From positions 1 through 64,000 of IMG/VR virus record IMGVR_UViG_3300009082_000018: DNA of 64,000 nucleotides, one strand, 5' to 3'. Both the position numbers and the translations under genes were made by a program. Below are positions 793 through 56,298 of this stretch, one piece after another (position 1 is the stretch's first letter; each line of letters starts with the position of its first letter). Below the pieces are notes generated by a model that worked only from the letters and a program-made list of their open reading frames with translations, searched no databases and was not told the DNA's origin. The stretch comes from a virus.

Positions 793-798
793 GCTACG

Positions 799-1008
799 AT
801 GCCTGCTGCTTCGCTGTTCGTTGGGGGGAGATTGTGGCTAGTGGAAGATCTCCATTGTGGCTACATGGCGACGTGCCCTGTGACTCGCCTAGTGATCGTC
901 AGTGAGACGTTTCAAGGACTGGTCTACGATATTTGCGACGAGATGGGCATTGAAAGAGTGGAATTGACATCTTGCACTGGGACGGACAAGACGCCTGTGA
1001 AGGGCTAG
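799..1008 (+). CDS. Hypothetical protein
   Basis: Fits the gap between co-oriented genes. Confidence 0.4.
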   Translation: MPAASLFVGGRLWLVEDLHCGYMATCPVTRLVIVSETFQGLVYDICDEMGIERVELTSCTGTDKTPVKG

Positions 1009-1012
1009 ACCT

Positions 1013-1348
1013 ATGACAGGGCAGCTTCCGAAGATCACCATCGCTCCGATATTCGACTTGTGGAGTTTGATCCACTTCGGCTTCTGGGCCTTCATCTCGA
1101 GCACAGTCGGTGCCTGTTGGGAGCCGCCGCTCTGGGTGCATCTGCTCTACACGCTGGTTGGGAGCTACATCTGGGAAGGGATCGAGTATCCCTTGCAGAG
1201 GAAGTACCCTGCCAGGTGGAGCTACCGTCTGGAGGGCAAGCTCAACGCCTTCGTCGGTGATCCGATCTCGAATCTTCTCGGAGCCGCCTTTGGGTGGTTC
1301 GTGGTGGCCTATTACCGGAAGCATTTCTGGGTTTGGAGGAAGAAGTGA
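1013..1348 (+). CDS. Small membrane protein
   Basis: Hydrophobic segments; DLWSLIHF...WEGIE...D pattern. Confidence 0.6.
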   Translation: MTGQLPKITIAPIFDLWSLIHFGFWAFISSTVGACWEPPLWVHLLYTLVGSYIWEGIEYPLQRKYPARWSYRLEGKLNAFVGDPISNLLGAAFGWFVVAYYRKHFWVWRKK

Positions 1349-1995
1349 GCCGTGACCCAAAAACGACTCATTGTACGGATCCTCTGGGAGTGCCCATGGT
1401 GCGGGAAGCTCTGGACTCAGAAGCCGACACCCCGGTCGACATGCCCCACATGTCATGCCGTTGTGGGGGAAAGGGGCTGGGCATCACGGTCGGGTTCTCC
1501 ACCACCAACAAGTGGATCTCCAGAATCATCCGATGGATCACTGGTGGTAAAATGAGCCATGCCTGGATCGCCTACGACGACTTCACGCTCGGCCTGCGGA
1601 TGGTGATGCAGGCTGAGGCGTGGGCGTTTGAGGTCCGACCGTGGCAGCGGTGGATCAAAGAGAACAAGTGGGTGGCTGAGTTCCGGATGATTGGTGGTCG
1701 TCAGCATGTGGCTTTGCGGAAGAGAGCCCGTGACCTGGGGGCGAAGTACGACTGGGCTTCCGGATTGTGCGTGGGTATCTCTGCGTGGTTCAAGCGCTGG
1801 ATCAAGTCCGGGTTCAGCTTTCGACCTAGTCGCACCCCAAAGAGATTGATGTGCTCCGAGGCCGTCGTGCGCTTCCTGAAGGACGCCGGGTGTCATAGTG
1901 TCTCCGATCTAGACGAAGAGCTGACATCCCCTGCAGAGCTGTACGACGTTGTGAGAAGCTCAAACGACTTCATGCCGGTGAGACGTCATGGCTGA
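1345..1995 (+). CDS. Permuted papain-like (YiiX/YebB, NlpC/P60-type) amidase
   Basis: His-before-Cys order SHAWI...KYDW...MCSEAV; start inferred at the GTG overlapping the previous stop (GTGA). Confidence 0.65.
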   Translation: MSRDPKTTHCTDPLGVPMVREALDSEADTPVDMPHMSCRCGGKGLGITVGFSTTNKWISRIIRWITGGKMSHAWIAYDDFTLGLRMVMQAEAWAFEVRPWQRWIKENKWVAEFRMIGGRQHVALRKRARDLGAKYDWASGLCVGISAWFKRWIKSGFSFRPSRTPKRLMCSEAVVRFLKDAGCHSVSDLDEELTSPAELYDVVRSSNDFMPVRRHG

Positions 1996-3316: not shown

Positions 3317-3952
3317 ATGTCCTATATCGCAGTGCTTCAAGGGGTTCCAACGTGGCTGCCGTTCGTTGCCGCCGATGTCAACACCGGAGCGCCTCGAGTT
3401 GGGATCACTTTCAGCCAGGTGGACGTAGCCTATAAGAAGGCCACTGATCCAAGTTTCATTCTCAAGCTTCTCTCGGGTCCTGATTTTCGAGAGAACGGCA
3501 ACGGTGTCTACGAGATTTTGTTCTCATCGGGTGAGCTGGCAGTAGTTGGCTCATTCATTTTCGTGGTGAATGGAAACGGATCGCTGCCGTCGCCGCCTAT
3601 TCGGCAGGCTCTCACCCAAGCGGTTGTCCAGTCGTCCAGTACCTACACACCTGGCACAATCAGTCTCAACACCAACATCCTCACGGGAAACCTGGTTGAT
3701 CTGAAAGGTGTGGCCATGGTGGGTGAGGCAGTCAGCGCCCGATTGCTACAGGCGCCTGGCATCTTGGGGACGAACCCCAATCGTGGTGGTGTCGGAACCC
3801 AGATTGTGGCTGCGAAAACAGATCAGGCTGGGTTCTTCGCCCTCGAGGTGATTCAGGGTTCAGTGATTGATGTGGTGATCCCAAGCATCAACTACAGGCG
3901 AACGCTGACTGTCCCTAGCAACGCGACAGACAAGCTGTTCGACATTCCATAG
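3317..3952 (+). CDS. Putative virion structural protein
   Basis: AGGAG RBS; TDQAGFF beta-sandwich motif; operon context. Confidence 0.55.
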   Translation: MSYIAVLQGVPTWLPFVAADVNTGAPRVGITFSQVDVAYKKATDPSFILKLLSGPDFRENGNGVYEILFSSGELAVVGSFIFVVNGNGSLPSPPIRQALTQAVVQSSSTYTPGTISLNTNILTGNLVDLKGVAMVGEAVSARLLQAPGILGTNPNRGGVGTQIVAAKTDQAGFFALEVIQGSVIDVVIPSINYRRTLTVPSNATDKLFDIP

Positions 3953-3961
3953 GACGGAACC

Positions 3962-5368
3962 ATGGCGGCCCCGACAAGCATCACTGTCAAGTTGGATCTC
4001 GACGAGTACAGCAAGTTCGAGAAAGACCGCCGCACGATGACGGTGACCTGGACTGCTGCGGGCGGCGGCGACATGAGTGGGCACGTTCTGAATCTGGAGC
4101 TTCGCAAAGCTCGTCGAGATCGTACGAGCGTGGCCTACACCAAGACCTTCGCGATTGTTGGCACTACTGACCCCGTATCTGGGACCTGGCTGATCAATTT
4201 GAAAGAGGATTGTGTCGATTCGGAGTTCATCAACACAATCCGTCGTGGGTACTACTTTGTTCGCGTCTCTCTGTCCACCAACGTGGCTGTCTATGGAGAT
4301 TCGCCCGATGTTCCGATCTCCATTATGACTCCTGCGTTCCTACAGCAACAGTTCCTTTTTGGACTGCCGCTGGAGGCACGCGAACAGAAGATGGTCAAAT
4401 TTCAACCCACTAACATCTCAGGTGTGGAAATCATCGAGGCCAGCCAGAGCCATCCCGTTGGGTTCTGCGCACTGACTTACGTGTACAACGATCCTCCAAC
4501 GCAGCGTCAGTTGTCTTGGGGCGCCGGCCCGCTGGTCTCGATCACAGCACCAGGAAGGTACTTGCTGAAGTACGATTGCAACGGATCGGACTACATCGTG
4601 GTCCAGATTCGAAGTCTCTCAGCGTTGCCAACAGCGGGAGCCACCGACGATCTCTATATGTCGCATGCAAAGATCACTGACGCCATGATGCGCAGGTGGA
4701 TTGAACAGGCGTGTGACTGGTTGGAGAACGACAAGATCGCTGGAGTGTTCCTTGAACCAACCAGGCTGGTCACTGATGTGGTTCTTCCTGGCAACGTGAT
4801 CCCAGATTGGGATTTGATCATTCCGCCCATCACCTATTACCAGATGACGGCGGCCAAGTGGATCGACATCCTCTTTCCGTACATGAGCCTTCTGAGGCTG
4901 AATCGGCTCTTCGGAAAGATCGCCAACACTGAAGTGATCAATATTTCCCTGGACTGGATTGAAATCTCGGAGAAGAACGGTTTGGTGCAGCTGATTCCGT
5001 TCAACTCTTCCACGTCCAATCAGTTCCTGGGCATGGTGTGGGTGTCTGCCTTGAGCGGACCCATCGAGCTTCCTAACTTCTGGCACTTCGATGCCATTGC
5101 CGGCTTGCGAGATGTCGATCCGATCCTAATCGAGATCATAGGCAAGAAGGCTGCAATGGATGCTCTCACGCAGGCGGGGCACGCCTACCGAGGAGGCTTC
5201 TCGAGCCAGTCCATTTCACGCGATGGTGTGTCGGAGAGCGTATCCTACACAGCCAGTGCCATCTACGGGATCTACGCAGCAACTATTGAGGATTACAACA
5301 AATTCCTCAACCGGGAGATCAAACAGATCAAGGGTAGGTACCGAGGCTTGAACGTGGTGGTGCTGTAA
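3962..5368 (+). CDS. Head-tail adaptor/neck protein
   Basis: C-terminal SQSISRDGVSESVSY motif typical of adaptor proteins; first gene of the neck-sheath block. Confidence 0.65.
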   Translation: MAAPTSITVKLDLDEYSKFEKDRRTMTVTWTAAGGGDMSGHVLNLELRKARRDRTSVAYTKTFAIVGTTDPVSGTWLINLKEDCVDSEFINTIRRGYYFVRVSLSTNVAVYGDSPDVPISIMTPAFLQQQFLFGLPLEAREQKMVKFQPTNISGVEIIEASQSHPVGFCALTYVYNDPPTQRQLSWGAGPLVSITAPGRYLLKYDCNGSDYIVVQIRSLSALPTAGATDDLYMSHAKITDAMMRRWIEQACDWLENDKIAGVFLEPTRLVTDVVLPGNVIPDWDLIIPPITYYQMTAAKWIDILFPYMSLLRLNRLFGKIANTEVINISLDWIEISEKNGLVQLIPFNSSTSNQFLGMVWVSALSGPIELPNFWHFDAIAGLRDVDPILIEIIGKKAAMDALTQAGHAYRGGFSSQSISRDGVSESVSYTASAIYGIYAATIEDYNKFLNREIKQIKGRYRGLNVVVL

Positions 5369-46681: not shown

Positions 46682-46918
46682 ATGGATACCGTGATCCACA
46701 TCAGCCCTGTTGGTTGGTGGGTCTCCTATAAGAAGGACCAATGGACCGGTCCCTTCAAGGATGAGAACGAGGCCCACGAAGCGGCCAAGGTGATTGTGCC
46801 GATGATCTATCCGGAGTACCAGCTACTACGGGTCATGCCGTGGGAACGGAAGACCTGTCCCAACGTCTACAACGAATTGTTGACGAAGAAGAATAGGAGA
46901 TCGAAATGCCAGGACTGA
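46682..46918 (+). CDS. Hypothetical protein
   Basis: GAGG RBS; GPFKxExEA pattern. Confidence 0.5.
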   Translation: MDTVIHISPVGWWVSYKKDQWTGPFKDENEAHEAAKVIVPMIYPEYQLLRVMPWERKTCPNVYNELLTKKNRRSKCQD

Positions 46919-47691
46919 TCATCAATGGCAAAGAAGAACTGGTTGATGGACTCACCATCATCAACTACAAGGACGAGCCCAAGCTCAAGCTCAAGGCGGG
47001 CGAAGACATGCGGGCGCGCAAGACCCGCTGGATTCGTTCGATCGTCCTGCACAACACCAAGAACATCCAAACCAAGGTCAAGGCTGGCTTTGGTCCCTCC
47101 ACCAATCTCGGCAAGCGCATCGCCGATCTTTGGGCCACGAGCAGCAAAAACGCTGGTGCTCACCTGTCCGTGGACTGGGACGGGACGGTCTACTGCCACG
47201 CAGATCTACTTCAGGATGCGACCTACCACGCAAGTTCGATGAATGAGGTCTCGATCGGAATCGAGATCTACGAGGATGGGAAGGGCGTGGTGTACGAGGG
47301 CCAGCTCGACGTCGTGGTCAAACTCGTGGTCTGGCTCTGCCGGCGCTTTGGTATCCAGATGCAGATGCCGATCGCCATGGACAACTCCGAGATCTCTCGG
47401 ATCAAGCGTGGCGGCGAAGACTGTGTAGGGGTGTTCGGTCACTGCCACCAGAACCACAAGGACAAGGCCCACGACCCTGGCATCGACATCTTCAAGCGCC
47501 TGAAAGCCGATGCTGGGTTCAAGGAGTTCGACTTCGCTCATCAGGGCATGCCTGATGACATCAAGTACTGGATGATCACCCAGAAGGCACTCGATCTCGT
47601 AATCGACGGTGTGCCTGGCCCCAAGACCTGCGACGCACTCCAGGCTCGTGGGTTTGCCAACGGTCTCTACGACTGGAAGACGACACTGTGA
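46906..47691 (+). CDS. Endolysin: N-acetylmuramoyl-L-alanine amidase (Amidase_2) plus PG-binding domain
   Basis: IVLHNT, AHLSV, YHA..MNEVSIGIE, GH, DPG; DGVPGPKT. Confidence 0.85.
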   Translation: MPGLIINGKEELVDGLTIINYKDEPKLKLKAGEDMRARKTRWIRSIVLHNTKNIQTKVKAGFGPSTNLGKRIADLWATSSKNAGAHLSVDWDGTVYCHADLLQDATYHASSMNEVSIGIEIYEDGKGVVYEGQLDVVVKLVVWLCRRFGIQMQMPIAMDNSEISRIKRGGEDCVGVFGHCHQNHKDKAHDPGIDIFKRLKADAGFKEFDFAHQGMPDDIKYWMITQKALDLVIDGVPGPKTCDALQARGFANGLYDWKTTL

Positions 47692-47979: not shown

Positions 47980-48132
47980 GTGAAGTGTAGCAGAAGAGAA
48001 GATCGTCGTCGTCTTCGAGGTGGCTCGCAACTGACGCGTAAGAAGCGTCGACGAAATCGTATGCTGCGTCTGGTTCTCACTAGACGAAATCGCAGGGTAC
48101 AGCGACAACAACTGGCCCAAGAGGAATTATGA
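47980..48132 (+). CDS. Small Arg-rich protein (not in ORF track)
   Basis: 50 codons from GTG; stop overlaps the methylase ATG (ATGA). Confidence 0.4.
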   Translation: MKCSRREDRRRLRGGSQLTRKKRRRNRMLRLVLTRRNRRVQRQQLAQEEL

Positions 48133-48896
48133 TCAAGCAACCTCCCCCTGTTCGACCTCCGGTGAAAGGCTGGAAACAGGCGCCTGGCGGCAAGATTTTC
48201 ACCGGGGACTGCATCGACATGCTCAAAGAGCTGAGTTCAGAGTCTGTTGATCTGTCAATCTTCGATCCCGCCTACGAAAGCCTGGAGAAGCATCGAGCTG
48301 TCGGATCGAAGACCAGGCTCAAGCACTCCAAGGCCTCCAGCAACGATTGGTTCACGACCTTCCCCAACGCCCGATACGGGGAGCTGTTCCAGCAGCTCTT
48401 CCGAGTGATGAAGCCAGGGACTCACATCTACATGTTCTGCGACGAGGAGACTCGCGACGTGGTGACCTGTGGCTGGTCTCCTCAATCTCCGAATGTCAAC
48501 CTCGGTTTCTCACCCATCCTGGCCGCCGGCTTCAAGTACTGGAAGGCTCTCATCTGGGACAAGATGATCGCCGGCATGGGCTATCATTATCGAGCCCAGC
48601 ACGAATTCATCGTTATGGCTGAGAAGATCGTGAGAGTGAACAAGCACCGGCAGCTAAACGATCTAGGACCAGGTGACGTCCTCCAGCATCGTCGCCTCAA
48701 GGGACCGGATTACTACCCGACGGAGAAGCCTCGAGAGTTGATCGAGCTGTTGGTGAAGCAGTCGTCGAATACAGGTGACACGGTGCTTGATATGTTCGCT
48801 GGTTCTGGTGTGGTGGGTCAGGTCTGCCAGGACATCGATCGTCGTTTCATCCTGGGTGACATCGACACCAAAGAGATTCGCCTGAGACTCGTATGA
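48129..48896 (+). CDS. DNA N4-C/N6-A methyltransferase (beta class), orphan
   Basis: DPAY catalytic motif, PTEKP, VLDMFAGSG. Confidence 0.85.
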   Translation: MIKQPPPVRPPVKGWKQAPGGKIFTGDCIDMLKELSSESVDLSIFDPAYESLEKHRAVGSKTRLKHSKASSNDWFTTFPNARYGELFQQLFRVMKPGTHIYMFCDEETRDVVTCGWSPQSPNVNLGFSPILAAGFKYWKALIWDKMIAGMGYHYRAQHEFIVMAEKIVRVNKHRQLNDLGPGDVLQHRRLKGPDYYPTEKPRELIELLVKQSSNTGDTVLDMFAGSGVVGQVCQDIDRRFILGDIDTKEIRLRLV

Positions 48897-49366
48897 CCAC
48901 GCTCAAGATCACCTTTGATCCCGATACCAAGTTCTGCCAGCTTCGCTTCGGCTACAATAAGCGATTTGCTGAATTCATGAAAAGTGGGATCACTCCTCTT
49001 TCTTATCGGCGCTGGGTGGCAGACAAGAAGTACTGGGAGGTCCACGTCTCGAAGCTGGCTCGTGTGGTCGTGGTGGCCCGTCGCTACTTCGGTCATGTCG
49101 ATTACTCAGAGCTGCCAGGTGGCCTACAGATCGAGCTGGCCATCAGGATGAGTGCCTTCGATGACGTGGAGGCACCGCCCAAGAGGACGGCTTCTACACC
49201 GCACGATGTGCTCTACCTGCTACCCACTGCGCCAATCGAGGTGGTCAAGGCAGCCTATCGAGCCCTGGCTCTTATTCATCACCCAGATCGGGGCGGTGAC
49301 GAGGAAATCCTGAAGGAGATCAACTCTGCTTACGAAACCATCACTGAGGCGAAAAAAGAGGGTTGA
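48893..49366 (+). CDS. DnaJ/J-domain protein
   Basis: VKAAYRALALIHHPDRGG...EINSAYE. Confidence 0.85.
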   Translation: MTTLKITFDPDTKFCQLRFGYNKRFAEFMKSGITPLSYRRWVADKKYWEVHVSKLARVVVVARRYFGHVDYSELPGGLQIELAIRMSAFDDVEAPPKRTASTPHDVLYLLPTAPIEVVKAAYRALALIHHPDRGGDEEILKEINSAYETITEAKKEG

Positions 49367-49392
49367 CAAACGACCCGACCTAGTTCAAGGAT
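49363..49392 (+). promoter_or_regulatory. Putative promoter of the leader/tRNA operon
   Basis: Perfect TTGACA 49363-49368; weak -10 AAGGAT after 18 nt; implies a start near the leader ATG. Confidence 0.45.
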
Positions 49393-49397
49393 GAAGA

Positions 49398-49553
49398 ATG
49401 ATGTTCCAAGCCGCAAAACGAACAAAGTCGAGCGCCCGGAGTTGGCGCGGGACGTGTTCGTTTAGCGTGCGCCCAGATCATAGCTCGAGGGAATTGGGTA
49501 CCCTGCAGTCTTACCCGAATACCCTCGAGCCCATTGGAGCGCCAGGCGGCTAG
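49398..49553 (+). CDS. Putative attenuator leader peptide (51 aa) MMFQAAKRTKSSARSWRGTCSFSVRPDHSSRELGTLQSYPNTLEPIGAPGG
   Basis: All 20 amino acids and 41 distinct codons; last codons complementary to the terminator arm. Confidence 0.7.
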   Translation: MMFQAAKRTKSSARSWRGTCSFSVRPDHSSRELGTLQSYPNTLEPIGAPGG

Positions 49554-49589
49554 GACTCGAGGAAACATAGGACTCGAGAGGCCGCCTGG
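49542..49589 (+). promoter_or_regulatory. Antiterminator pairing
   Basis: CCAGGCGGC (49542-49550) is the exact reverse complement of GCCGCCTGG (49581-49589). Confidence 0.7.
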
Positions 49590-49611
49590 GAAACCAAGCG
49601 GCCTTTTTTTT
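49579..49611 (+). terminator. Intrinsic terminator immediately upstream of the tRNA array
   Basis: AGGCCGCCTGG-GAAA-CCAAGCGGCCT followed by a T8 run. Confidence 0.9.
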
Positions 49612-49616
49612 GTTCT

Positions 49617-49688
49617 GGGTGGTTCGTCCAACTGGAAGGGCCCCGGGCCGTAACCCCGGCTATCTAGGTTCGACTCCTAGACCACCCA
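49617..49688 (+). tRNA. tRNA-Tyr(GTA), atypical (C33, short variable loop)
   Basis: GGGTGGT/ACCACCC; CCGGG-CCGTAAC-CCCGG; TTCGACT. Confidence 0.7.
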
Positions 49689-49755
49689 TTGGAGATCGAC
49701 TATGTGCTTGCAGGAATTCATGCACCGCTTGAAACAGAGGCTTGAGTCAGATCAA

Positions 49756-49828
49756 GCCTCCGTGGTGCAGCGGCTAGCACACATGGCTTTTACCCATCGA
49801 GACGCAGGTTCGAGTCCTGCCGGGGGCA
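49756..49828 (+). tRNA. tRNA-Lys(TTT)
   Basis: Hand-folded cloverleaf; loop CTTTTAC. Confidence 0.85.
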
Positions 49829-49840
49829 CTGAAGGAAGTC

Positions 49841-49912
49841 GGGCTCGAAGTGTTATGGTTGCACAGCGGACTCTTAATCCGACAAGTGAGGGTTCAACTC
49901 CCTCCGGGCCCA
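49841..49912 (+). tRNA. tRNA-Lys(CTT)
   Basis: Cloverleaf; loop CTCTTAA. Confidence 0.85.
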
Positions 49913-49923
49913 TTGAGAATTGA

Positions 49924-49995
49924 TCCGGGTTAGCCTAGCGGCAAAGGCAGCGCGCTCTGACCGCGCCATCGAAGGTTCGAGTCCTTCACCCGGAA
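49924..49995 (+). tRNA. tRNA-Gln(CTG)
   Basis: Cloverleaf; U1-A72; loop CTCTGAC. Confidence 0.9.
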
Positions 49996-50041
49996 CTGCG
50001 CAACTGGCCCTTGACAATTGAATAGCTGGTCGTGGTCGTTT

Positions 50042-50116
50042 GGTGAGGTCGTCCAATCGGTAGGACACCAGACTGAAAATCTGGGAACGACGGTTCGACT
50101 CCGTCCCTTGCCACCA
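50042..50116 (+). tRNA. tRNA-Phe(GAA), CCA encoded
   Basis: Cloverleaf; loop CTGAAAA. Confidence 0.9.
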
Positions 50117-50119
50117 CTT

Positions 50120-50190
50120 GGGCCTGTAGCTTGAAGGTCGAGCCACCGGCTCATAACCGGTTGGTGAGTGTTCGATTCACTCCGGGCCTA
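50120..50190 (+). tRNA. tRNA(CAT), probably Ile2
   Basis: Cloverleaf; loop CTCATAA; GGGCCT acceptor. Confidence 0.75.
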
Positions 50191-50194
50191 TTGA

Positions 50195-50265
50195 TCGGGT
50201 GTCGTCTAACGGTAGGGCCGTGGACTTTGGATCCATGAATAGAGGTTCGACTCCTCTCACCCGAA
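50195..50265 (+). tRNA. tRNA-Gln(TTG)
   Basis: Cloverleaf; loop CTTTGGA. Confidence 0.85.
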
Positions 50266-50267
50266 AA

Positions 50268-50340
50268 CGGGGAGTAGGGCATTGGATGACCCGCTTGCTT
50301 TGGGAGCAAGAATAAGCTGGTTCGATTCCAGTCTCCCCGA
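50268..50340 (+). tRNA. tRNA-Pro(TGG)
   Basis: Cloverleaf; C1-G72; loop TTTGGGA. Confidence 0.85.
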
Positions 50341-50351
50341 CTGATCTTCAT

Positions 50352-50426
50352 TCCAGAGTAGCTCAAAGGTGGAGCGGCGCCCTGTTAAGGCGATGGCTGG
50401 GGGTTCGAGTCCCTCCTCTGGAGCCA
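50352..50426 (+). tRNA. tRNA-Asn(GTT), CCA encoded
   Basis: Cloverleaf; loop CTGTTAA; G73. Confidence 0.9.
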
Positions 50427-50438
50427 GTAAAGTTGATC

Positions 50439-50510
50439 CGCCTCGTGGCTCAGTGGTCCGAGCAGTCGGCCGATAACCGACAGGCGAGAGTTCGATTCTC
50501 TCCGAGGCGA
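50439..50510 (+). tRNA. tRNA-Ile(GAT), C33
   Basis: Cloverleaf; loop CCGATAA. Confidence 0.85.
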
Positions 50511-50522
50511 AAAGAAGATCAT

Positions 50523-50595
50523 GGCGGACGAAGCCAAACGGTGCGGCGCCTGACTGTGGATCAGGTTCTAGGGGGTTCGACTCCCCTCGTTCGCC
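50523..50595 (+). tRNA. tRNA-His(GTG)
   Basis: G-1:C73; loop CTGTGGA. Confidence 0.9.
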
Positions 50596-50696
50596 CTCGC
50601 ACATGTTATGCTCCTGCGCAGGTCTACCAGAGCGGGCCAGATCGCCCTTGAATGGGCGTGGAGGGCGGCGCAGGCGGGCCAGGGCGGGGAGCGCTT

Positions 50697-50768
50697 GGGG
50701 ACGTAGTGATAGCGGGAGCACACGGCGTTCGCAACGCTGAAGTGAGGGTTCGACTCCCTCCGTCTCCA
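50697..50768 (+). tRNA. tRNA-Ala(CGC)
   Basis: G3:U70; loop TTCGCAA. Confidence 0.9.
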
Positions 50769-50774
50769 CTCTCT

Positions 50775-50845
50775 GGGCTCATAGTGAAATGGGATCACGC
50801 AGCCTCGGCAAGGCTGAATCCCGGGTTCAACTCCCGGTGGGTCCA
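50775..50845 (+). tRNA. tRNA-Ala(GGC), C33
   Basis: G3:U70; loop TCGGCAA. Confidence 0.85.
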
Positions 50846-50850
50846 CTCTT

Positions 50851-50933
50851 GGAGGGTACTGAGGAATGGTCCTCAACATGGTCCGAACCCATGGGCGGCC
50901 GAAAGACCGGGCGTTCGATTCGTCTACCCTCCG
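50851..50933 (+). tRNA. tRNA-Ser(CGA), C33
   Basis: Long variable arm; G73; loop TCCGAAC. Confidence 0.8.
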
Positions 50934-50961
50934 CTGATTGTTGATCTGAAAATTGTACCAT

Positions 50962-51032
50962 GGACGCGGAAGCTGTCGGATGGCTGACCGGCTGTCTACC
51001 GGTTGAAGAGGGTTCAACTCCCTTCGCGTCCG
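50962..51032 (+). tRNA. tRNA-Asp(GTC)
   Basis: Cloverleaf; loop CTGTCTA; G73. Confidence 0.8.
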
Positions 51033-51033
51033 C

Positions 51034-51107
51034 CGCAGGGTTGAGGAGAGGTCTACCTCGCCTGGCTCATAACCAGGAGCACGTTGGTTCAAATCCAACC
51101 CCTGCTA
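51034..51107 (+). tRNA. tRNA-fMet-like (CAT)
   Basis: C1xU72 mismatch; loop CTCATAA; TTCAAAT. Confidence 0.8.
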
Positions 51108-51181
51108 GCGCGGTTGAGGTGTTTGTGGTTGCACGCGGCGTTGCCAACGCTGAAGACAGGGTTCGACTCCCTGCAGCCGCA
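51108..51181 (+). tRNA. tRNA-Gly(GCC)
   Basis: GCG acceptor; loop TTGCCAA. Confidence 0.85.
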
Positions 51182-51183
51182 AC

Positions 51184-51256
51184 GCCGGAGGTCGAGGGTT
51201 CAAATCCCTCCAGGCTCCCGCAAGGGACCTGTAGCTCAGTCAGGTAGAGCACCGGC
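51184..51256 (+). ncRNA. Circularly permuted tRNA-like RNA, open at the anticodon
   Basis: GCCGG-AGGTC-T arm-CAGGCTCCC-GCAA-GGGACCTG-TA-D arm-A-CCGGC. Confidence 0.8.
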
Positions 51257-51260
51257 TTCT

Positions 51261-51345
51261 GGAAGGTGACCCGTAATGGTACGGGAGCTGGTTGCTAACC
51301 AGTCAGGGGGTAACGCCCCAGCAGGTTCGATTCCTGCACCTTCCG
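51261..51345 (+). tRNA. tRNA-Ser(GCT)
   Basis: Long variable arm; loop TTGCTAA. Confidence 0.9.
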
Positions 51346-51352
51346 CCGGATT

Positions 51353-51436
51353 GGAGAGCGAGAAGCAGGGTGCGCAACTGCGTTGGAAGCGCAGGAGGGT
51401 TGAAAGGCCCGCTGGGTTCGATTCCCAGGCTCTCCG
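51353..51436 (+). tRNA. tRNA-Ser(GGA)
   Basis: Long variable arm; loop TTGGAAG; weak D stem. Confidence 0.8.
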
Positions 51437-51529
51437 CTAGATGAGTCGACTGACACGGAGACGGCAGCTGATCCCGGTCCCCAAGGGCGTCTTACGGCTG
51501 ACGGGCTGTCAGAGCACGACTCATCGCAT

Positions 51530-51601
51530 GCGGGTGAGATGTTAACGGTTGCATGTCAGTCTTCCAAACTGAATGACGGAGTTCAACTCTCCGCACCCGC
51601 A
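51530..51601 (+). tRNA. tRNA-Gly(TCC)
   Basis: Cloverleaf; loop CTTCCAA. Confidence 0.9.
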
Positions 51602-51615
51602 CCGTATAGTTGATC

Positions 51616-51694
51616 CGGGATGTAGCTCAGCCAGGGAGAGCGCTCGCTTCGGGAGCGAGAGGTTTCGTGGGTTCGAACCCCACCATCCCGACCA
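51616..51694 (+). tRNA. tRNA-Pro(CGG), CCA encoded
   Basis: Cloverleaf; loop TTCGGGA. Confidence 0.9.
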
Positions 51695-51696
51695 AT

Positions 51697-51770
51697 GCCA
51701 AGGTAGCCCAACAGGAAGTGGCACACGCCTCAGGCGCGTGACAGTGAGGGTTCGAATCCCTTCCTTGGCA
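51697..51770 (+). tRNA. tRNA-Leu(CAG), short variable loop
   Basis: Cloverleaf; loop CTCAGGC; A73. Confidence 0.85.
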
Positions 51771-51775
51771 TCTTC

Positions 51776-51847
51776 GCCGCCAAAGCGTAAAGGGTGACGC
51801 GCCGGCTTCGTACACCGGAGAACCCAGTTCAACTCTGGGTGGCGGCT
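51776..51847 (+). tRNA. tRNA-Thr(CGT)
   Basis: GCC acceptor; loop TTCGTAC. Confidence 0.8.
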
Positions 51848-51849
51848 CT

Positions 51850-51982
51850 GGGTGGACCGACAGAGGTTGGATTATCCATGCTAAGGACGAGGTCGCGGGT
51901 TCGAATCCCGTCGGGCTCCTTCGGGGGCCCGTGGCTCAGCGGTAGAGCGCGTAAAACTCCAGCTTCAACCCCTTGTTCACCC
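51850..51982 (+). ncRNA. yrlA: Y RNA (YrlA type) inside the tRNA array
   Basis: GGGTGGAC(C)GA/TTGTTCACCC bulged-C stem; permuted tRNA module (T arm, UUCG-capped acceptor, D arm). Confidence 0.85.
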
Positions 51983-51986
51983 TACT

Positions 51987-52057
51987 GCCGGATGATGACT
52001 CCTGGGGAGTCAGCGCACTTGTAAGGCGCCAGGGCGGTTCGACTCCGACATCCGGCT
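51987..52057 (+). tRNA. tRNA-Thr(TGT)
   Basis: GCC acceptor; loop CTTGTAA; atypical D arm. Confidence 0.75.
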
Positions 52058-52069
52058 CTGATCTGAAAT

Positions 52070-52141
52070 GGCCTTGTCTGCTAACGGTAGGCAACCTGGT
52101 TCTCACCCAGGAAACGATGGGTTCAACTCCCTCCAAGGTCA
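52070..52141 (+). tRNA. tRNA-Glu(CTC)
   Basis: Loop TTCTCAC; bulged T stem. Confidence 0.8.
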
Positions 52142-52146
52142 CTGAC

Positions 52147-52218
52147 GGCCCCATCTGCTAACGGTAGGCACCGTGGTTTTCACCCACGCAACGGCGGGTT
52201 CAACTCCCCCTGGGGTCA
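52147..52218 (+). tRNA. tRNA-Glu(TTC)
   Basis: Loop TTTTCAC; bulged T stem. Confidence 0.8.
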
Positions 52219-52222
52219 CTGA

Positions 52223-52295
52223 GGGCGCTTCGTCTAGCGGCAAGGACCCCTGCTCGACACGCAGGTGATCGCCGGTTCGAGTCCGGCAGTGCCCA
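52223..52295 (+). tRNA. tRNA-Val(GAC), C33
   Basis: Cloverleaf; loop TCGACAC. Confidence 0.85.
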
Positions 52296-52299
52296 CTTC

Positions 52300-52371
52300 G
52301 GGGAGTTGGTGAAACTGGGATCACACGGCCCTTGCACGGCTGGATCAGGGGTTCAAATCCCCTACTCTCCA
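52300..52371 (+). tRNA. tRNA-Ala(TGC)
   Basis: G3:U70; loop CTTGCAC. Confidence 0.9.
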
Positions 52372-52437
52372 CTACCTGCACAGGTCATTGCCGATATGAC
52401 TAGTCTGTCAGAAGGGATGGTCTGTGCGGGGTCGATT

Positions 52438-52510
52438 GCCGCCAAAGTCCACGTGGTCGGGACGCCTGCTTGGTACGCAGGAGGGCAGAGTTCGATTCTC
52501 TGTGGCGGCT
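52438..52510 (+). tRNA. tRNA-Thr(GGT)
   Basis: Cloverleaf; loop TTGGTAC. Confidence 0.85.
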
Positions 52511-52568
52511 CCGCTGATTATCAGCATTTCACTTATGAAGATCACTGATAATCACTGATGAGACTGAT

Positions 52569-52639
52569 GGGGTTGAGGCTGAGGTAGCCGGACGGTCTCC
52601 AAAACCGTCGTCGAGGGGGTTCGATTCCCTCCAACCCTG
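52569..52639 (+). tRNA. tRNA-Trp(CCA)
   Basis: Loop CTCCAAA; G73; short D arm. Confidence 0.8.
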
Positions 52640-52644
52640 CTGAT

Positions 52645-52715
52645 GAGTCCGTGTCCGAGAGGCGAGGTACCTGGCTGCAACCCAGGTCACGGGGGTTCAA
52701 ATCCCTCCGGACTCT
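52645..52715 (+). tRNA. tRNA-Cys(GCA)
   Basis: Loop CTGCAAC; U73. Confidence 0.9.
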
Positions 52716-52720
52716 CTGAT

Positions 52721-52796
52721 GCACCCGTGGTCCAAAGGATGGGCACCGGTCCTCTAAACCGGATCCATGCTGGTTCGAGTCCAGCCGGGTGTGCCA
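52721..52796 (+). tRNA. tRNA-Arg(TCT), C33, CCA encoded
   Basis: CCGGT-CCTCTAA-ACCGG; A20. Confidence 0.85.
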
Positions 52797-52797
52797 A

Positions 52798-52870
52798 GGT
52801 CCCGTGGTCTAAAGGATGGGCACCTGTTTCCTAAACAGGATCAATGCAGGTTCGAGTCCTGCCGGGATCA
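52798..52870 (+). tRNA. tRNA-Arg(CCT)
   Basis: Loop TTCCTAA. Confidence 0.9.
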
Positions 52871-52874
52871 CTGA

Positions 52875-52948
52875 GCTGCGATAGTGTAGGGGACTCTGCA
52901 CGGTGCTCTCCGAAAGCACAGGTCTGGGCTCGACTCCCAGTCGCAGCA
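52875..52948 (+). tRNA. tRNA-Arg(CCG)
   Basis: Loop CTCCGAA; T loop CTCGACT (C54). Confidence 0.8.
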
Positions 52949-52950
52949 TT

Positions 52951-53023
52951 GGGCGGTTCTCCTAGCGGAATGGAACCTGACCTACACTCAGGAATAATGG
53001 GGGTTCAACTCCCTCACCGCCCA
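52951..53023 (+). tRNA. tRNA-Val(TAC), C33
   Basis: Loop CCTACAC. Confidence 0.8.
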
Positions 53024-53027
53024 TCAT

Positions 53028-53099
53028 CTGCCCATGGTCTAAAGGAAGGGCCCCTGACTACGGATCAGGTGCATGCAGGTTCGAGTCCTGCTGGGCAGG
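53028..53099 (+). tRNA. tRNA-Arg(ACG)
   Basis: Loop CTACGGA. Confidence 0.9.
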
Positions 53100-53105
53100 C
53101 TACAC

Positions 53106-53180
53106 GCCGGGGTGGCGCAAATGGAAGATCGCTCCAGACTTAGGATCTGGCTGTTGAGGGTTCGAATCCCTTCCCCGGTA
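53106..53180 (+). tRNA. tRNA-Leu(TAG), short variable loop
   Basis: Loop CTTAGGA. Confidence 0.85.
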
Positions 53181-53183
53181 CTT

Positions 53184-53257
53184 GGCAGCAGGGAGGAGAG
53201 GGACTCCTCACCGCTCTCATAAAACGGGAATTGCTGGTTCGATCCCAGCTGCTGCCA
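53184..53257 (+). tRNA. tRNA-Met(CAT), probably elongator
   Basis: GGC acceptor; loop CTCATAA. Confidence 0.75.
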
Positions 53258-53260
53258 CGA

Positions 53261-53333
53261 GCCCTCGTAGCCCAAGAGGAAGCGGCATCGCCTTAAAAGC
53301 GATCAAGTGGGGGTTCGAGTCCCTCCGGGGGCA
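53261..53333 (+). tRNA. tRNA-Leu(TAA), short variable loop
   Basis: Loop CTTAAAA. Confidence 0.8.
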
Positions 53334-53336
53334 CAC

Positions 53337-53409
53337 CGAGGAGTAGGGCATTGGATGACCCGCTCGGATGGGGTCCGAGAGCAAGCTGGTTCGATTCCAG
53401 TCTCCTCGA
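53337..53409 (+). tRNA. tRNA-Pro(GGG)
   Basis: Loop ATGGGGT; paralog of Pro(TGG). Confidence 0.85.
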
Positions 53410-53418
53410 TCTTGATAT

Positions 53419-53492
53419 GCCAGGGTAGCCCAATCGGTAGTGGCACCAGCCCGAGGCGCTGGACAGTGTGGGTTCGAATCCCATCCCTGGTA
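53419..53492 (+). tRNA. tRNA-Leu(GAG), C33, short variable loop
   Basis: Loop CCGAGGC. Confidence 0.85.
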
Positions 53493-53496
53493 CTAT

Positions 53497-53571
53497 GGCG
53501 CGGTAGCCCAACTGGTAGGAGGCACCGGCCTCAAGCTCCGGACAGTGAGGGTTCGAATCCCTCTCGCGCTA
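53497..53571 (+). tRNA. tRNA-Leu(CAA), short variable loop
   Basis: Loop CTCAAGC. Confidence 0.85.
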
Positions 53572-53611
53572 CGACTTGTGAAAACGACCACGATCTGCTA
53601 TTGGTGCAATC

Positions 53612-54121
53612 ATGCAAACGCTCGTACTCGACCAAGGCTACCAGCCGATCAACACCGTCCCTTGGACCAAGGCGATGGGATACATCGCCCGTGGCAAGGT
53701 CGACGTGCTGGAGGAGTACGAGCAGGAGGTCCACTTCAACATGGGCATGCCGGCGGTGGTGAGGCTCAACCATCGCATCAGTGCCAGCAAGAAGAGGATC
53801 AAGTTCTCTCGTCAGAATGTGCTGGCGAGGGACAAGTTCAGTTGCCAGTACTGCGGCGCCCACGGACGTGACGTGGTTCTAACCTTCGATCACATCATCC
53901 CCAGGTCTCGGGGTGGTCGAACAGAGTGGGAGAACATCGTCATGGCCTGCCAGGAGTGCAATGCACGAAAGGCTGACCTGACGCTGAGAGAATCGGGAAT
54001 GCGTCTGCGGACGCAGCCTGTTCGACCGACGTGGGTGCCCACTTTCAACGTCGCTCTGCGGGATGCTGGCAACATCCCACCAGAGTGGCGGAACTACTGG
54101 ACAACAGAGCTGCAGCCGTAG
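53612..54121 (+). CDS. HNH endonuclease (McrA/HNH_5 type)
   Basis: LVLDQGYQP...NVLARDKFSCQYCG...TFDHIIPRSRGG...WENIV.AC..CN..K. Confidence 0.9.
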   Translation: MQTLVLDQGYQPINTVPWTKAMGYIARGKVDVLEEYEQEVHFNMGMPAVVRLNHRISASKKRIKFSRQNVLARDKFSCQYCGAHGRDVVLTFDHIIPRSRGGRTEWENIVMACQECNARKADLTLRESGMRLRTQPVRPTWVPTFNVALRDAGNIPPEWRNYWTTELQP

Positions 54122-54184
54122 AACCTTGTCCGGAATACTTCCTTGTCCTCTACGTAGCGGACAGGGAGGAAAACCGGACAACTT

Positions 54185-54267
54185 GGAGGGTGCCGCCGGT
54201 TGGTTGGCAACACGGTTTGAACCCGTGGGTGGTCGCAAGGCTAGGGGTTCGACTCCTCCACCCTCCG
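54185..54267 (+). tRNA. tRNA-Ser(TGA)
   Basis: Long variable arm; loop TTTGAAC; G73. Confidence 0.85.
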
Positions 54268-54298
54268 CTCTTCCCGCCAAATCCTTCATGATTATTTT

Positions 54299-54338
54299 TG
54301 ATTCTTTTGCTTGACAAAGAATCATTCATAGGGATAAT
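54299..54338 (+). promoter_or_regulatory. Sigma70-like promoter of the Y RNA-Ro operon with overlapping inverted repeat
   Basis: TTGACA 54311-54316, 16 nt, GATAAT; IR TGATTCTTT/AAAGAATCA. Confidence 0.7.
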
Positions 54339-54343
54339 AGGAT

Positions 54344-54432
54344 CATGAGGGACCGACTGAGTTAGGTTATCAAACTCTCACTTTGATTGGGGCCTCTGGC
54401 CCCGCTCCTAGCTCAACAACTTGTTCCTCATG
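54344..54432 (+). ncRNA. Y RNA-like gene 2 (no tRNA module)
   Basis: CATGAGGGAC(C)GA/TTGTTCCTCATG; second stem; two small hairpins; followed by T6. Confidence 0.75.
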
Positions 54433-54453
54433 TTTTTTGATCTGAAAAGGAGA

Positions 54454-54586
54454 ATTGAGGGACCGACGATTTGGGTTACCTTGGACCTGTTGGGGCTGGT
54501 TCAATTCCAGCTCGGTCACTTAGGTGATCGATAGTGTAGAGGCAGCACAGCAGGAGTGTTCCCAGATCAACAACTTGTTCCTCAAT
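54454..54586 (+). ncRNA. yrlA: Y RNA-like gene 3 (YrlA type)
   Basis: ATTGAGGGAC(C)GA/TTGTTCCTCAAT; T arm GCTGG-TTCAATT-CCAGC, capped acceptor, D arm. Confidence 0.8.
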
Positions 54587-54599
54587 CTTTATTGGCTGT

Positions 54600-54670
54600 G
54601 AGAGTGGACCGCTGATCTTGGGTTACCTTCTTTGGTGAACAACCCCAGGGTCGATCTTTTGTTCGCTCTC
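54600..54670 (+). ncRNA. Y RNA-like gene 4 (minimal)
   Basis: GAGAGTGGAC(C)G/TGTTCGCTCTC; GATCTTGGG/CCCAGGGTC; GGTTACC motif. Confidence 0.7.
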
Positions 54671-54696: not shown

Positions 54697-56298
54697 GTGC
54701 AGAACTTCGGTGGCTCGTTCTCGACTGTTAGCACTCCGCAGACCCAGCCGACCCCGGGCAAGAACGAAATCAAGATGCGCTCCGGTGGCTACGGCTTCGC
54801 CGTGGATGACTGGGTGCGCCTCAACCGGTTTTTGATCATGGGCTCGGAGGGCGGAACCTACTACGCCTCGGAACGCGAGATGACCAAGGTCGCCAGCGAT
54901 GCGGCCATGAGGCTGGTCAGACAGAATGGTGTGGCGGTGGTCAACCACGTCGTCGAGATCAGCCAGTCCGGTCGTGCGTTCAAGAACGATCCGGCGCTGT
55001 GGGTTCTGGCCATGGCATCGCAGCTCGGTGATCAGGCTACCAAAGAGCTGGCGTACAAGTCGCTGCCGTTGGTGGCACGCATCTCGACCCACCTGTTCCA
55101 CTGGCTGCAGTACACCAAGGCCTTCGGGCACCAGGGAGGCAACGGCTTCAAGCGGGCAGTGGCACGATGGTACCTGGAGCAGACACCGGCTCATCTGGCT
55201 CACCAGGTCGTGAAGTATCAGGCTCGTGATGGGTGGTCGCACCTGGACGCTCTTCGGATCGGTCACCCGACTCCGTCGGATGAGCTGTTCCAGGCAATCT
55301 TCCACTACGTCAAGCACGGCAGGACCAAAGATCTGTCGGCGGTTGCGGCGGTTCCGGAAGAGCTGACGCTCATCTGGGCGTGGGAGAAGATCAAAGAGGC
55401 AAAGAACGCCGATGAGGTCGCCAATCTGATCAGTGCTTTCAAGTTGCCGCACGAGTGCGTGCCGAACGAGTGGAAAGACCAGCAGGGGGTCTGGGGTGCG
55501 TTGTTGAACTCGATGGCACCGCACGCCATGCTGCGGAACCTGGGCAAGATGACCTCGGTGGGTCTGCTAGAGGGCAAGTCGGCGGCGGTGCAGAAGGTCG
55601 TGGACACGCTGACGGACATGGAGCGTCTGAAGAAGGCCAGGATGCACCCGATGTCGGTGCTGACTGCGTTGGCGGTCTACCGGACGGGCCGTGGCATCAA
55701 GGGCTCGCTGAGCTGGAACCCGAACCGTCGGGTGATCGACGCGCTCGATGAGGCCTTCTACCTGTCCTTCGGGACAGTGACGCCGACGGGCAAGCGGCTG
55801 CTTCTGGCCCTGGACGTATCAGGGTCGATGGGATCGCCGTGCGCTGGTTCTCCGCTGACCTGCAGGGAGGCGACGGCAGCCATGGCGATGGTCACGGCAC
55901 GGACGGAAGAGGACTACGAGATCGTCGGCTTCTGCGACAGCCTGAAGACGCTGAGCATCTCGCCGAAGCAGCGTCTGGATGACGTCGTGGAGTCGATCTC
56001 CCATCTGTCCTTCGGAGGCACGGACTGCAGCTTGCCGTTCCGTTGGGCGCAGTCCAAGCAGCAGAAGTTCGACGGTGTTATCACCTACACCGACAATGAG
56101 AGTTGGGGAGGTCCAGTGAAGGTTCACCAGGCAATGCAGCAGTATCGCCAGAAGATGGGCACCACAACCAAGGGAGCCTTCGTGGCCTTTGCGGCCAATG
56201 AGTACTCGGTGGCAGACCCGGACGACGCGGGTCAGATGAACTTCGTGGGCCTGGACGCCAACCTGCCACAGGCGCTCTCCAGCTTCATTGGAGAGTAG
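54697..56298 (+). CDS. rsr: Ro60-related TROVE + vWA domain RNA-binding protein
   Basis: RLNRFLIMGSEGGTYY, KYQARDGWSH.D, MLRNL, HPM, LDVSGSM, GGTD, TDNE; GGAGG RBS. Confidence 0.95.
   Translation: MQNFGGSFSTVSTPQTQPTPGKNEIKMRSGGYGFAVDDWVRLNRFLIMGSEGGTYYASEREMTKVASDAAMRLVRQNGVAVVNHVVEISQSGRAFKNDPALWVLAMASQLGDQATKELAYKSLPLVARISTHLFHWLQYTKAFGHQGGNGFKRAVARWYLEQTPAHLAHQVVKYQARDGWSHLDALRIGHPTPSDELFQAIFHYVKHGRTKDLSAVAAVPEELTLIWAWEKIKEAKNADEVANLISAFKLPHECVPNEWKDQQGVWGALLNSMAPHAMLRNLGKMTSVGLLEGKSAAVQKVVDTLTDMERLKKARMHPMSVLTALAVYRTGRGIKGSLSWNPNRRVIDALDEAFYLSFGTVTPTGKRLLLALDVSGSMGSPCAGSPLTCREATAAMAMVTARTEEDYEIVGFCDSLKTLSISPKQRLDDVVESISHLSFGGTDCSLPFRWAQSKQQKFDGVITYTDNESWGGPVKVHQAMQQYRQKMGTTTKGAFVAFAANEYSVADPDDAGQMNFVGLDANLPQALSSFIGE

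Follow-up and report, generated by a model that had tools for sequence, protein, structure and literature searches.

We describe here the sequence that lies directly ahead of a large array of transfer RNA (tRNA) genes in an uncultivated phage (IMG/VR record IMGVR_UViG_3300009082_000018), analyzed in the first 64 kilobases (kb) of a 109.6-kb record with a completeness estimate of 65%; this 64-kb stretch is referred to throughout as the window. A short leader open reading frame (ORF) draws on all 20 amino acids and an unusually broad set of codons, its last codons are complementary to one arm of an intrinsic terminator, and the terminator immediately precedes the tRNA genes. From the sequence and from folding models we propose that these components form a ribosome-mediated leader-peptide transcription attenuator that would sense the tRNA pool and govern the complete array behind it, a reading that we favor with moderate rather than high confidence. 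The anatomy of the element, its conservation and the statistics of its composition are direct observations, and the core of the attenuator interpretation passed every computational test that was run, including an out-of-sample one, and is to this extent partly supported.

Composition of the leader ORF

The initial annotation of this region described a 51-codon ORF with 41 distinct codons and all 20 amino acids, and estimated that random use would yield about 35. The counts are reproduced and the estimate is close to the computed value, in that 34.7 ± 2.3 distinct codons are expected if all 61 are used uniformly at random, and the probability of at least 41 is 0.006. In a model with the position-specific base composition of the ORF itself this probability is 0.0007, and in the comparison with other 51-codon stretches that had been suggested, 41 distinct codons are reached by 0.03% of the 12,526 stop-free stretches of this length in the window. 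The other two frames of the same stretch contain 35 and 36 distinct codons, so the excess is specific to the leader frame and is not a property of the sequence as such. The presence of all 20 amino acids within 51 residues has a probability of about 0.025. Given the peptide, the synonymous choices are also more varied than expected (P = 0.016-0.04), as they also are in the leader of a related phage contig, L002 (P = 0.003-0.015), whose J-domain protein and large terminase are 74% and 88% identical to those of the window phage. In L002 the leader ORF (4309-4473) likewise includes every one of the 20 amino acids, and 44 of its 54 codons are distinct (P = 0.0006 against the uniform null); distinct codons number 35-39 in the remaining frames of the two copies, as against 41 of 51 and 44 of 54 in the leader ORFs. 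A hypergeometric test of codon relocation (P = 5e-5) was set aside as inflated by shared amino acids, and the peptide-conditional tests are used instead.

The codons of the leader call on 37 of the 43 tRNAs of the array, where a uniform null gives 29.2 ± 2.1 (P = 0.0004); this is the number originally annotated, and the same six tRNAs are left without a cognate codon. The L002 leader likewise calls on 36 of 43 array tRNAs (null 29-30). The regulatory codons therein match the products of the downstream genes in a modified form, with a broad repertoire and no codon runs.

Competing RNA structures

The stretch is predicted to be highly structured, with a fold z-score of -6.7 relative to shuffles, and it contains the components of a putative switch (Table 1). 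The sequence of codons 49-51 (49542-49550) matches the reverse complement of 49581-49589 exactly, and the perfect pairing between the last three codons and the terminator 5' arm that was described initially is thus confirmed over 9 nucleotides (nt); in shuffles of the upstream sequence, a complement of this length to the terminator arm occurs with P = 0.004. The terminator, with its C-A mismatch, also stands where it was first placed, separated from the tRNA-Tyr gene by a gap of 4-5 nt, and is the only strong canonical terminator on the plus strand of the window. The antiterminator (49542-49589), in which region 2 pairs with 49580-49589, has a predicted energy of -29.6 kcal/mol in both the window and L002, exceeding the stability of the terminator by about 10 kcal/mol in each phage (-19.4 kcal/mol for the terminator of L002). 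Hairpin C within it is formed by the only direct repeat seen, at 49551-49579 after the stop codon. In L002 the outer pair of the terminator is changed from G-C to A-U and its single mismatch is shifted by one position, and region 2 is still a perfect complement.

A third helix, P1, pairs region 1 with part of region 2 (49409-49414 with 49546-49551), and is present in the minimum-energy folds of the window and L002 and in the consensus fold. When the RNA is folded only as far as the stop codon, regions 1 and 2 pair in both copies and enclose hairpins A and B; addition of the following 40 nt makes the alternative pairing of region 2 with the terminator 5' arm available. P1 is only 6-7 base pairs (bp) long and its sequence is invariant, so that it offers no covariation. 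The apical stem of hairpin A has a different sequence in L002 and is still paired, with two pairs changed on both sides, and in hairpin B all of the pairs are kept across the copies, with one-sided changes only (G-C/G-U or U-G/U-A). The ATG at 49398 is unpaired in all folds.

A scan of 48800-54600 against Rfam returned no family for the leader stretch, and none was found for 49340-49620 at permissive E values of up to 10, where there were only chance matches of less than 15 bits to unrelated small RNA families, none of them a T-box; the YrlA/Y RNA model has no match in the leader stretch. A boxA-like reading of 49456-49468 (9 of 13 positions relative to the E. coli rrn boxA) was rejected as too weak, and is poorer in L002.

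A model for control of the array

The nature of these structures suggests the following scheme. Transcripts would arrive from the TTGACA promoter, from the upstream operon, or from both, and full reading of the 51-codon ORF would require all 20 amino acids and approximately 37 different tRNAs. Three helices would compete, namely P1, the strong antiterminator, and the weaker mismatched terminator (-19.8 kcal/mol). In an untranslated RNA, P1 would fold first and the terminator would follow; a ribosome at the last codons or the stop would cover region 2, which again would lead to the terminator and keep the array off. A ribosome held earlier by a shortage of a tRNA or an aminoacyl-tRNA would break P1 and free region 2, the antiterminator would form, and RNA polymerase would enter the 43 tRNA genes. 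Because the products of the array are also the molecules sensed, we propose that the element would act as a homeostat of decoding capacity. Translation of the leader, termination, switching, the particular shortages that are sensed, and a link to anti-tRNA defenses are all inferred.

The response to ribosome position was modeled by treating the ribosome as an unpaired footprint at each A-site codon, which provides equilibrium estimates that ignore kinetics and ribosome bulk. When the ribosome occupies the stop or any of the last 5-8 codons, the probability of the terminator is 0.96 or more for the window and L002 alike, consistent with the initial proposal that a ribosome reaching the stop masks the antiterminator. 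The companion proposal, that stalling at any starved codon would free the antiterminator, stands in part. In L002 nearly every earlier stall leads to the antiterminator, but the last 5-8 codons are blind and the window copy responds at only some positions, with antitermination becoming the predominant outcome only when region 1 is kept from re-pairing behind the ribosome. As equilibrium-only models, these are counted as compatible with an attenuator and not as proof of one.

Conservation of the leader

The leader is present in L002 and in a metagenome contig, L011 (2019-2183, minus strand), which has one coding difference from L002, and in both it directly precedes an array starting with tRNA-Tyr and has the same terminator arrangement. 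The initial annotation had pointed to related arrays as the place to look for diverse-codon ORFs with covarying antiterminators and terminators; the ORFs are indeed there, but the switch helices are invariant and do not covary. The window and L002 leaders align with about 80% identity, and the indels within the ORF are of 9, 3, and 3 nt, with a 2-nt indel just past the stop; the stop itself keeps its position, as TAG in the window and as TGA in L002. The other two frames and the minus-strand frame are broken in L002, and an 83-codon minus-strand ORF (49380-49631) was rejected on this ground. Blocks of 26-30 nt are invariant between the two copies, third codon positions included.

L002 carries an extra gene between the J-domain gene and the leader, indicating that the element travels with the array rather than with the gene ahead of it. 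The extra gene has about 110 codons (3944-4276) and its end matches the last codons of the window J-domain gene (window 49340-49366), which suggests that a deletion fused the J-domain gene of the window phage with the end of an L002-type extra gene.

A profile search of 1.84 billion representative proteins identified two further homologues of the leader, P0003 (52 residues) and P0006 (49 residues, about 50% identical); two others, P0004 and P0005, were discarded as spurious, being long repeat proteins. Both P0003 and P0006 contain all 20 amino acids in spite of the relocation of residues that occur only once (Cys in P0003, Asp and Asn in P0006), and the His and Ile positions of the window peptide differ from those of the other copies. 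All 20 amino acids are thus represented in five of five family members (window, L002, L011, P0003, and P0006), and because this property was predicted from the window alone, P0003 and P0006 constitute an out-of-sample test, which was passed. With the shared positions fixed and the remainder redrawn, the chance of retaining all 20 is 0.03-0.06 for P0006, 0.03-0.08 for P0003, and 0.06-0.16 for the window.

Other routes to relatives were less productive. A 21-nt pattern used to scan metagenomes had one true match, L011; five Ga0180007 contigs (L006-L010) were false matches, in which an unrelated tandem repeat with a unit of about 37 nt contains the same 21-mer, and we take this exact identity to be coincidental. 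No relatives were found via the Ro60 protein encoded 3' of the array, and no matches were obtained in genome contigs scanned with the leader DNA and peptide profile or in viral contigs scanned with P0003 and P0006. The large terminase has relatives in two fragments, of which one (G001) ends within an array short of the leader and the other (G002) yielded no tRNA genes when 20,000 of its 20,862 bases were scanned. A blastn search with 48800-50100 against cultured phages gave no match, and the nearest large terminases of cultured phages are only about 30% identical to that of this phage.

These patterns bear on two alternative explanations. In the first, the stretch specifies a structured non-coding RNA, either a stable small RNA with its end at the terminator or a leader that acts in cis by binding a protein, ligand, or tRNA, and the open frame and its composition are functionless. 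The fold z-score, the maintenance of hairpin A with a different sequence, and the persistence of unchanged blocks at third positions in phages whose J-domain proteins are only 74% identical would all be accounted for, and the nearby Y-RNA-like genes and Ro60 show that the phage invests in structured RNAs. It is nonetheless unlikely, since Rfam has no matching family (its T-box and Y RNA models give no match either), the folds leave the start region unpaired, the codon-diversity excess is confined to the leader frame, and a functionless frame does not explain conservation of the frame itself, of the stop position, and of indels in multiples of three, or the keeping of all 20 amino acids in every member through relocations.

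The second alternative is that the leader is an ordinary small protein gene followed by the ordinary terminator of the upstream operon, with the array expressed by leaky read-through, from an unrecognized promoter, or with the help of a phage antitermination factor. Gene callers predicted the ORF in four metagenome sources, several leader residues are invariant, and an AGGA motif is well placed as its ribosome-binding site. However, the peptide has neither a Pfam family nor a hydrophobic core, the invariant residues coincide with RNA helices, the last codons form part of the antiterminator, P1 is conserved, and the terminator lies 4-10 nt ahead of the first tRNA, leaving no room for a promoter. 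The all-20 property is also unexplained, and we regard this explanation as quite improbable.

Transcription signals and genome context

The TTGACA hexamer ahead of the leader is a perfect -35 box, and the A-tract in front of it occupies the usual location of a proximal UP element. The stop codon of the J-domain gene (49364-49366) falls within the hexamer, and the A-tract/TTGACA block is kept in L002 and L011 despite a different upstream gene. As a -10 box, AAGGAT would set the transcription start at approximately the ATG at 49398 and generate a leaderless mRNA; alternatively, the AGGA it contains is 6 nt 5' of the ATG and well placed as a ribosome-binding site if transcripts come from upstream genes, and AGGAT is retained in L002 and L011, 7-8 nt ahead of their ATG codons. 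The sequence by itself is ambiguous as to which of these roles applies. Of the promoter described initially, the TTGACA box is present, but a start at the ATG with a leaderless message is ambiguous, and the -10 box is poor and the promoter was not called in a consensus scan. We note that TTGACA sits in a hairpin (8 bp in L002, 4266-4286; weaker in the window, 49352-49376) with six A bases in front; on the minus strand this resembles an intrinsic terminator and could also stop antisense transcription. Direct repeats of the type bound by TrcR, the repressor of the Anabaena array discussed below, were not noticed on reading 49369-49400, a reading that was not a dedicated search.

The array starts with tRNA-Tyr at 49616, and its 43 genes, counted by ARAGORN and Rfam combined, span all 20 amino acids, bearing out its description as a complete phage tRNA set. 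Two of the genes were missed by ARAGORN, Ser(CGA) at 50851-50934 and an Arg(CCG)-type tRNA at 52875-52948. A permuted transfer-messenger RNA (tmRNA) called by ARAGORN at 50024-50644 is probably false, as it overlaps seven ordinary tRNA genes and Rfam has no tmRNA match there. The interruption of the array by an HNH endonuclease gene is also seen in L011 and in a fragment, L018. Two sub-threshold matches to YrlA, a Y RNA-like RNA, occur inside the array (51186-51254 and 51864-51974), and just 3' of it is a gene for a 533-residue Ro60 homologue with TROVE and Ro60 vWA domains (54697-56298). A near-consensus promoter (TTGACA, 16 nt, GATAAT) is situated at 54311, between the array and the Ro60 gene and ahead of Y-RNA-like genes.

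The initial annotation gave weight to whether the array has a promoter of its own downstream of 49611, and a consensus scan for sigma-70-like promoters identified none on the plus strand from 49612 to 54310. With no such promoter found behind the terminator, transcription of the array must pass the terminator, and regulated or partial read-through is logically needed.

Table 1. Positions of the leader element, its RNA structures, and neighboring genes in the window.
Feature	Position	Strand	Description
Endolysin or amidase gene	46906-47691		Upstream of leader
DNA methyltransferase gene	48129-48896		Upstream of leader
J-domain protein gene	48893-49366		157-residue protein with C-terminal DnaJ (J) domain; directly upstream of leader
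A-tract and TTGACA	49352-49357 and 49363-49368	+	Candidate UP element and -35 box
AAGGAT	49387-49392	+	Sole -10 candidate (18-nt spacer, 3/6 matches) or Shine-Dalgarno-like AGGA
Leader ORF	49398-49553	+	51 sense codons, 41 of them distinct, then a TAG stop; all 20 amino acids
Region 1	49409-49414	+	AGCCGC, codons 4-6; pairs with region 2 and closes a three-way junction (P1, putative anti-antiterminator)
Hairpin A	49416-49463	+	Within ORF; -24 kcal/mol; may serve as a pause or timing hairpin
Hairpin B	49471-49540	+	Within ORF; -29 kcal/mol; conserved 11-nt loop
Region 2	49542-49551	+	Last three sense codons and first base of stop; complement of terminator 5' arm; identical in L002 and L011
Hairpin C	49556-49578	+	CTCGAG hexamers at 49556-49561 and 49573-49578; stacks within antiterminator
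Intrinsic terminator	49580-49611	+	Arms 49580-49589/49594-49603, one C-A mismatch, GAAA loop, eight T (49604-49611); -19.8 kcal/mol
tRNA array	49616-54268	+	43 genes, all 20 amino acids; co-directional; proposed regulated cargo
HNH endonuclease gene	53612-54121		Splits array between tRNA-Leu(CAA) and tRNA-Ser(TGA)

Discussion

Several observations weigh against the attenuator interpretation. The leader has no cognate codon for the Ile2, Val(GAC), Arg(TCT), Leu(TAG), Leu(TAA), and Ser(TGA) tRNAs, and each codon is present only once or twice, making for a weak sensor next to the codon runs of the his and trp leaders. The window copy antiterminates at a limited set of stall positions, and the naked RNA at equilibrium favors the antiterminator in L002 and the terminator in the window. 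A single Ile codon in the window, and a single His codon in the other copies, fall at the margin of the blind zone, so that sensing at these codons depends on the assumed footprint. The case for a promoter suffers from the poor -10 box and the failure of the consensus scan to call it. At the DNA level there are only two distinct versions, with about 80% identity and with invariant switch helices, and P0003 and P0006 are known as peptides alone, from protein databases that list only intact ORFs and so carry a bias. L011 keeps the same leader ahead of only nine tRNAs, and we note that this short array (185-1954, minus strand) could be a deletion variant or an assembly collapse. Finally, the two large conserved hairpins and the long blocks without synonymous change reflect a constraint at the RNA level that the model does not need.

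A third explanation shares the anatomy of the attenuator that we favor, and is hard to separate from it. The leader could report the overall rate of translation or the availability of ribosomes rather than individual tRNAs, with the broad codon set being secondary, and the triggers could include host shut-off, ribosome-targeting toxins, antibiotics, or lost coupling of transcription and translation. Codons in single copies are a poor sensor of any one tRNA, and stall-sensing leader ORFs are known ahead of antibiotic-resistance genes, including a macrolide-sensing example (PMC4335068). However, amino-acid completeness and synonymous diversity are apparently under selection and would be needless in a pure rate sensor, and leaders in phage phiCbK have repertoires that follow the tRNA blocks behind them. 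We regard a rate sensor as improbable.

The phiCbK genome (JX100813, 47400-56000, designated L020) has annotated rho-independent terminators 11-128 nt before three tRNA blocks. The 45-residue gp083 precedes a Pro-Pro-Lys-Lys-Leu-Leu-Leu-Ser-Ser block, and P, K, L, and S account for 23 of the 44 residues that follow its initiator (P = 5e-5), as against a single residue that is F, V, I, Q, or G. A 32-codon ORF (L020 3942-4040) precedes a Phe-Val-Ile-Ile-Val-Gln-Gln-Gly block and has the opposite composition, with 10 of 31 residues after the start being F, V, I, or Q (P = 0.012) and three being P, K, L, or S; it also contains a near-copy of the 3' arm of its terminator. The third ORF, of 20 codons and located before a Glu-Asp block, shows no significant amino-acid match to its block. 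As in the window, two of the candidate phiCbK cassettes combine a mini-ORF that mirrors the tRNAs behind it with a terminator ahead of the tRNA block, and by analogy a leader with all 20 amino acids ahead of a complete array is what the phiCbK pattern predicts. The window leader differs in covering all 20 amino acids for a complete array and in its far more elaborate conserved RNA fold, and the two have no sequence similarity.

These considerations raise the broader possibility that phages regulate tRNA genes by decoding feedback, in which a leader ORF mirrors the array behind it. This phage would then be the extreme form, where a single 51-codon test message samples all 20 amino acids and approximately 37 tRNA species, and loss of any of these would switch on a complete replacement set. 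Such losses would arise from host anticodon nucleases, host tRNA decay, or a mismatch in codon usage. We advance this generalization tentatively, as something short of probable.

For the expression of large tRNA sets by phages, the published explanations are codon bias, host tRNA degradation, and escape from tRNA-cleaving defenses. If the attenuator interpretation is correct, a cis-encoded sensor would supply a regulatory logic for phage tRNA arrays, leader-peptide attenuation would extend from amino-acid supply to the tRNA pool, and there would be an explanation for the annotated terminators that immediately precede tRNA blocks in cultured phages, phiCbK among them. The element would also represent a compact natural reporter of global decoding capacity, and the sensor is directly amenable to testing on a 250-nt fragment.

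Comparison with known systems

Full-text literature searches revealed neither a described leader-peptide attenuator ahead of tRNA genes nor any published regulatory logic for phage arrays, in keeping with the view in the initial annotation that no such phage system had been described. The closest anatomical parallels are in the amino-acid operons, where trpL, hisL, leuL, pheL, and the multivalent thrL and ilvGMEDA leaders consist of a short leader ORF with mutually exclusive 1:2, 2:3, and 3:4 helices, an intrinsic terminator directly before the regulated genes, and a region 2 that is masked by a ribosome at the end of the ORF. The window element is predicted to share this organization, with P1 as a tentative counterpart of the 1:2 helix. 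The predicted logic is also alike, in that either no translation or full translation would lead to termination and stalling to read-through. The window leader departs from these in having no run of a single regulatory codon, with its 41 codons mostly present once each, in its longer ORF (51 codons) and two large conserved hairpins, in lacking sequence homology to them, and in its cargo, which is 43 phage tRNA genes and not biosynthetic enzymes.

Stall-sensing leader ORFs of about 50 codons also exist ahead of antibiotic-resistance genes, and the bmrB-bmrCD and vmlR systems of Bacillus are stall-sensing leaders. These resemble the window element in having an ORF of tens of codons in which slowed translation blocks a terminator, and they report general trouble in elongation; they differ in responding to drug-bound ribosomes at particular peptide motifs and in having efflux or ribosome-protection cargo, with no all-codon composition reported. 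A further leader of this kind, that of mef/mel, senses macrolides ahead of antibiotic-resistance genes (PMC4335068). T-box riboswitches likewise respond to the state of tRNA by selecting a terminator or an antiterminator, but they bind uncharged tRNA directly, lack an ORF, and regulate synthetase and amino-acid genes.

Among published cases the nearest is the long tRNA array of Anabaena PCC 7120, a trn operon that is normally silent and is induced when translation is impaired (PMC8421152, PMC10272220). It is supernumerary and horizontally spread and has RNA-repair genes nearby, and arrays of this type have up to 43 tRNA genes. The Anabaena array is, however, bacterial and not phage-encoded, and it is controlled at the level of the promoter by a ribbon-helix-helix repressor, TrcR, acting on direct repeats over the -10 box (PMC8421152, PMC10272220); the 2021 paper mentions no leader, attenuator, or terminator. 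The window element, as read from its sequence, thus appears to join the known anatomy and logic of the trp/his-type attenuators to two new features, a leader whose codons take in every amino acid and nearly every tRNA, and a cargo of tRNA genes.

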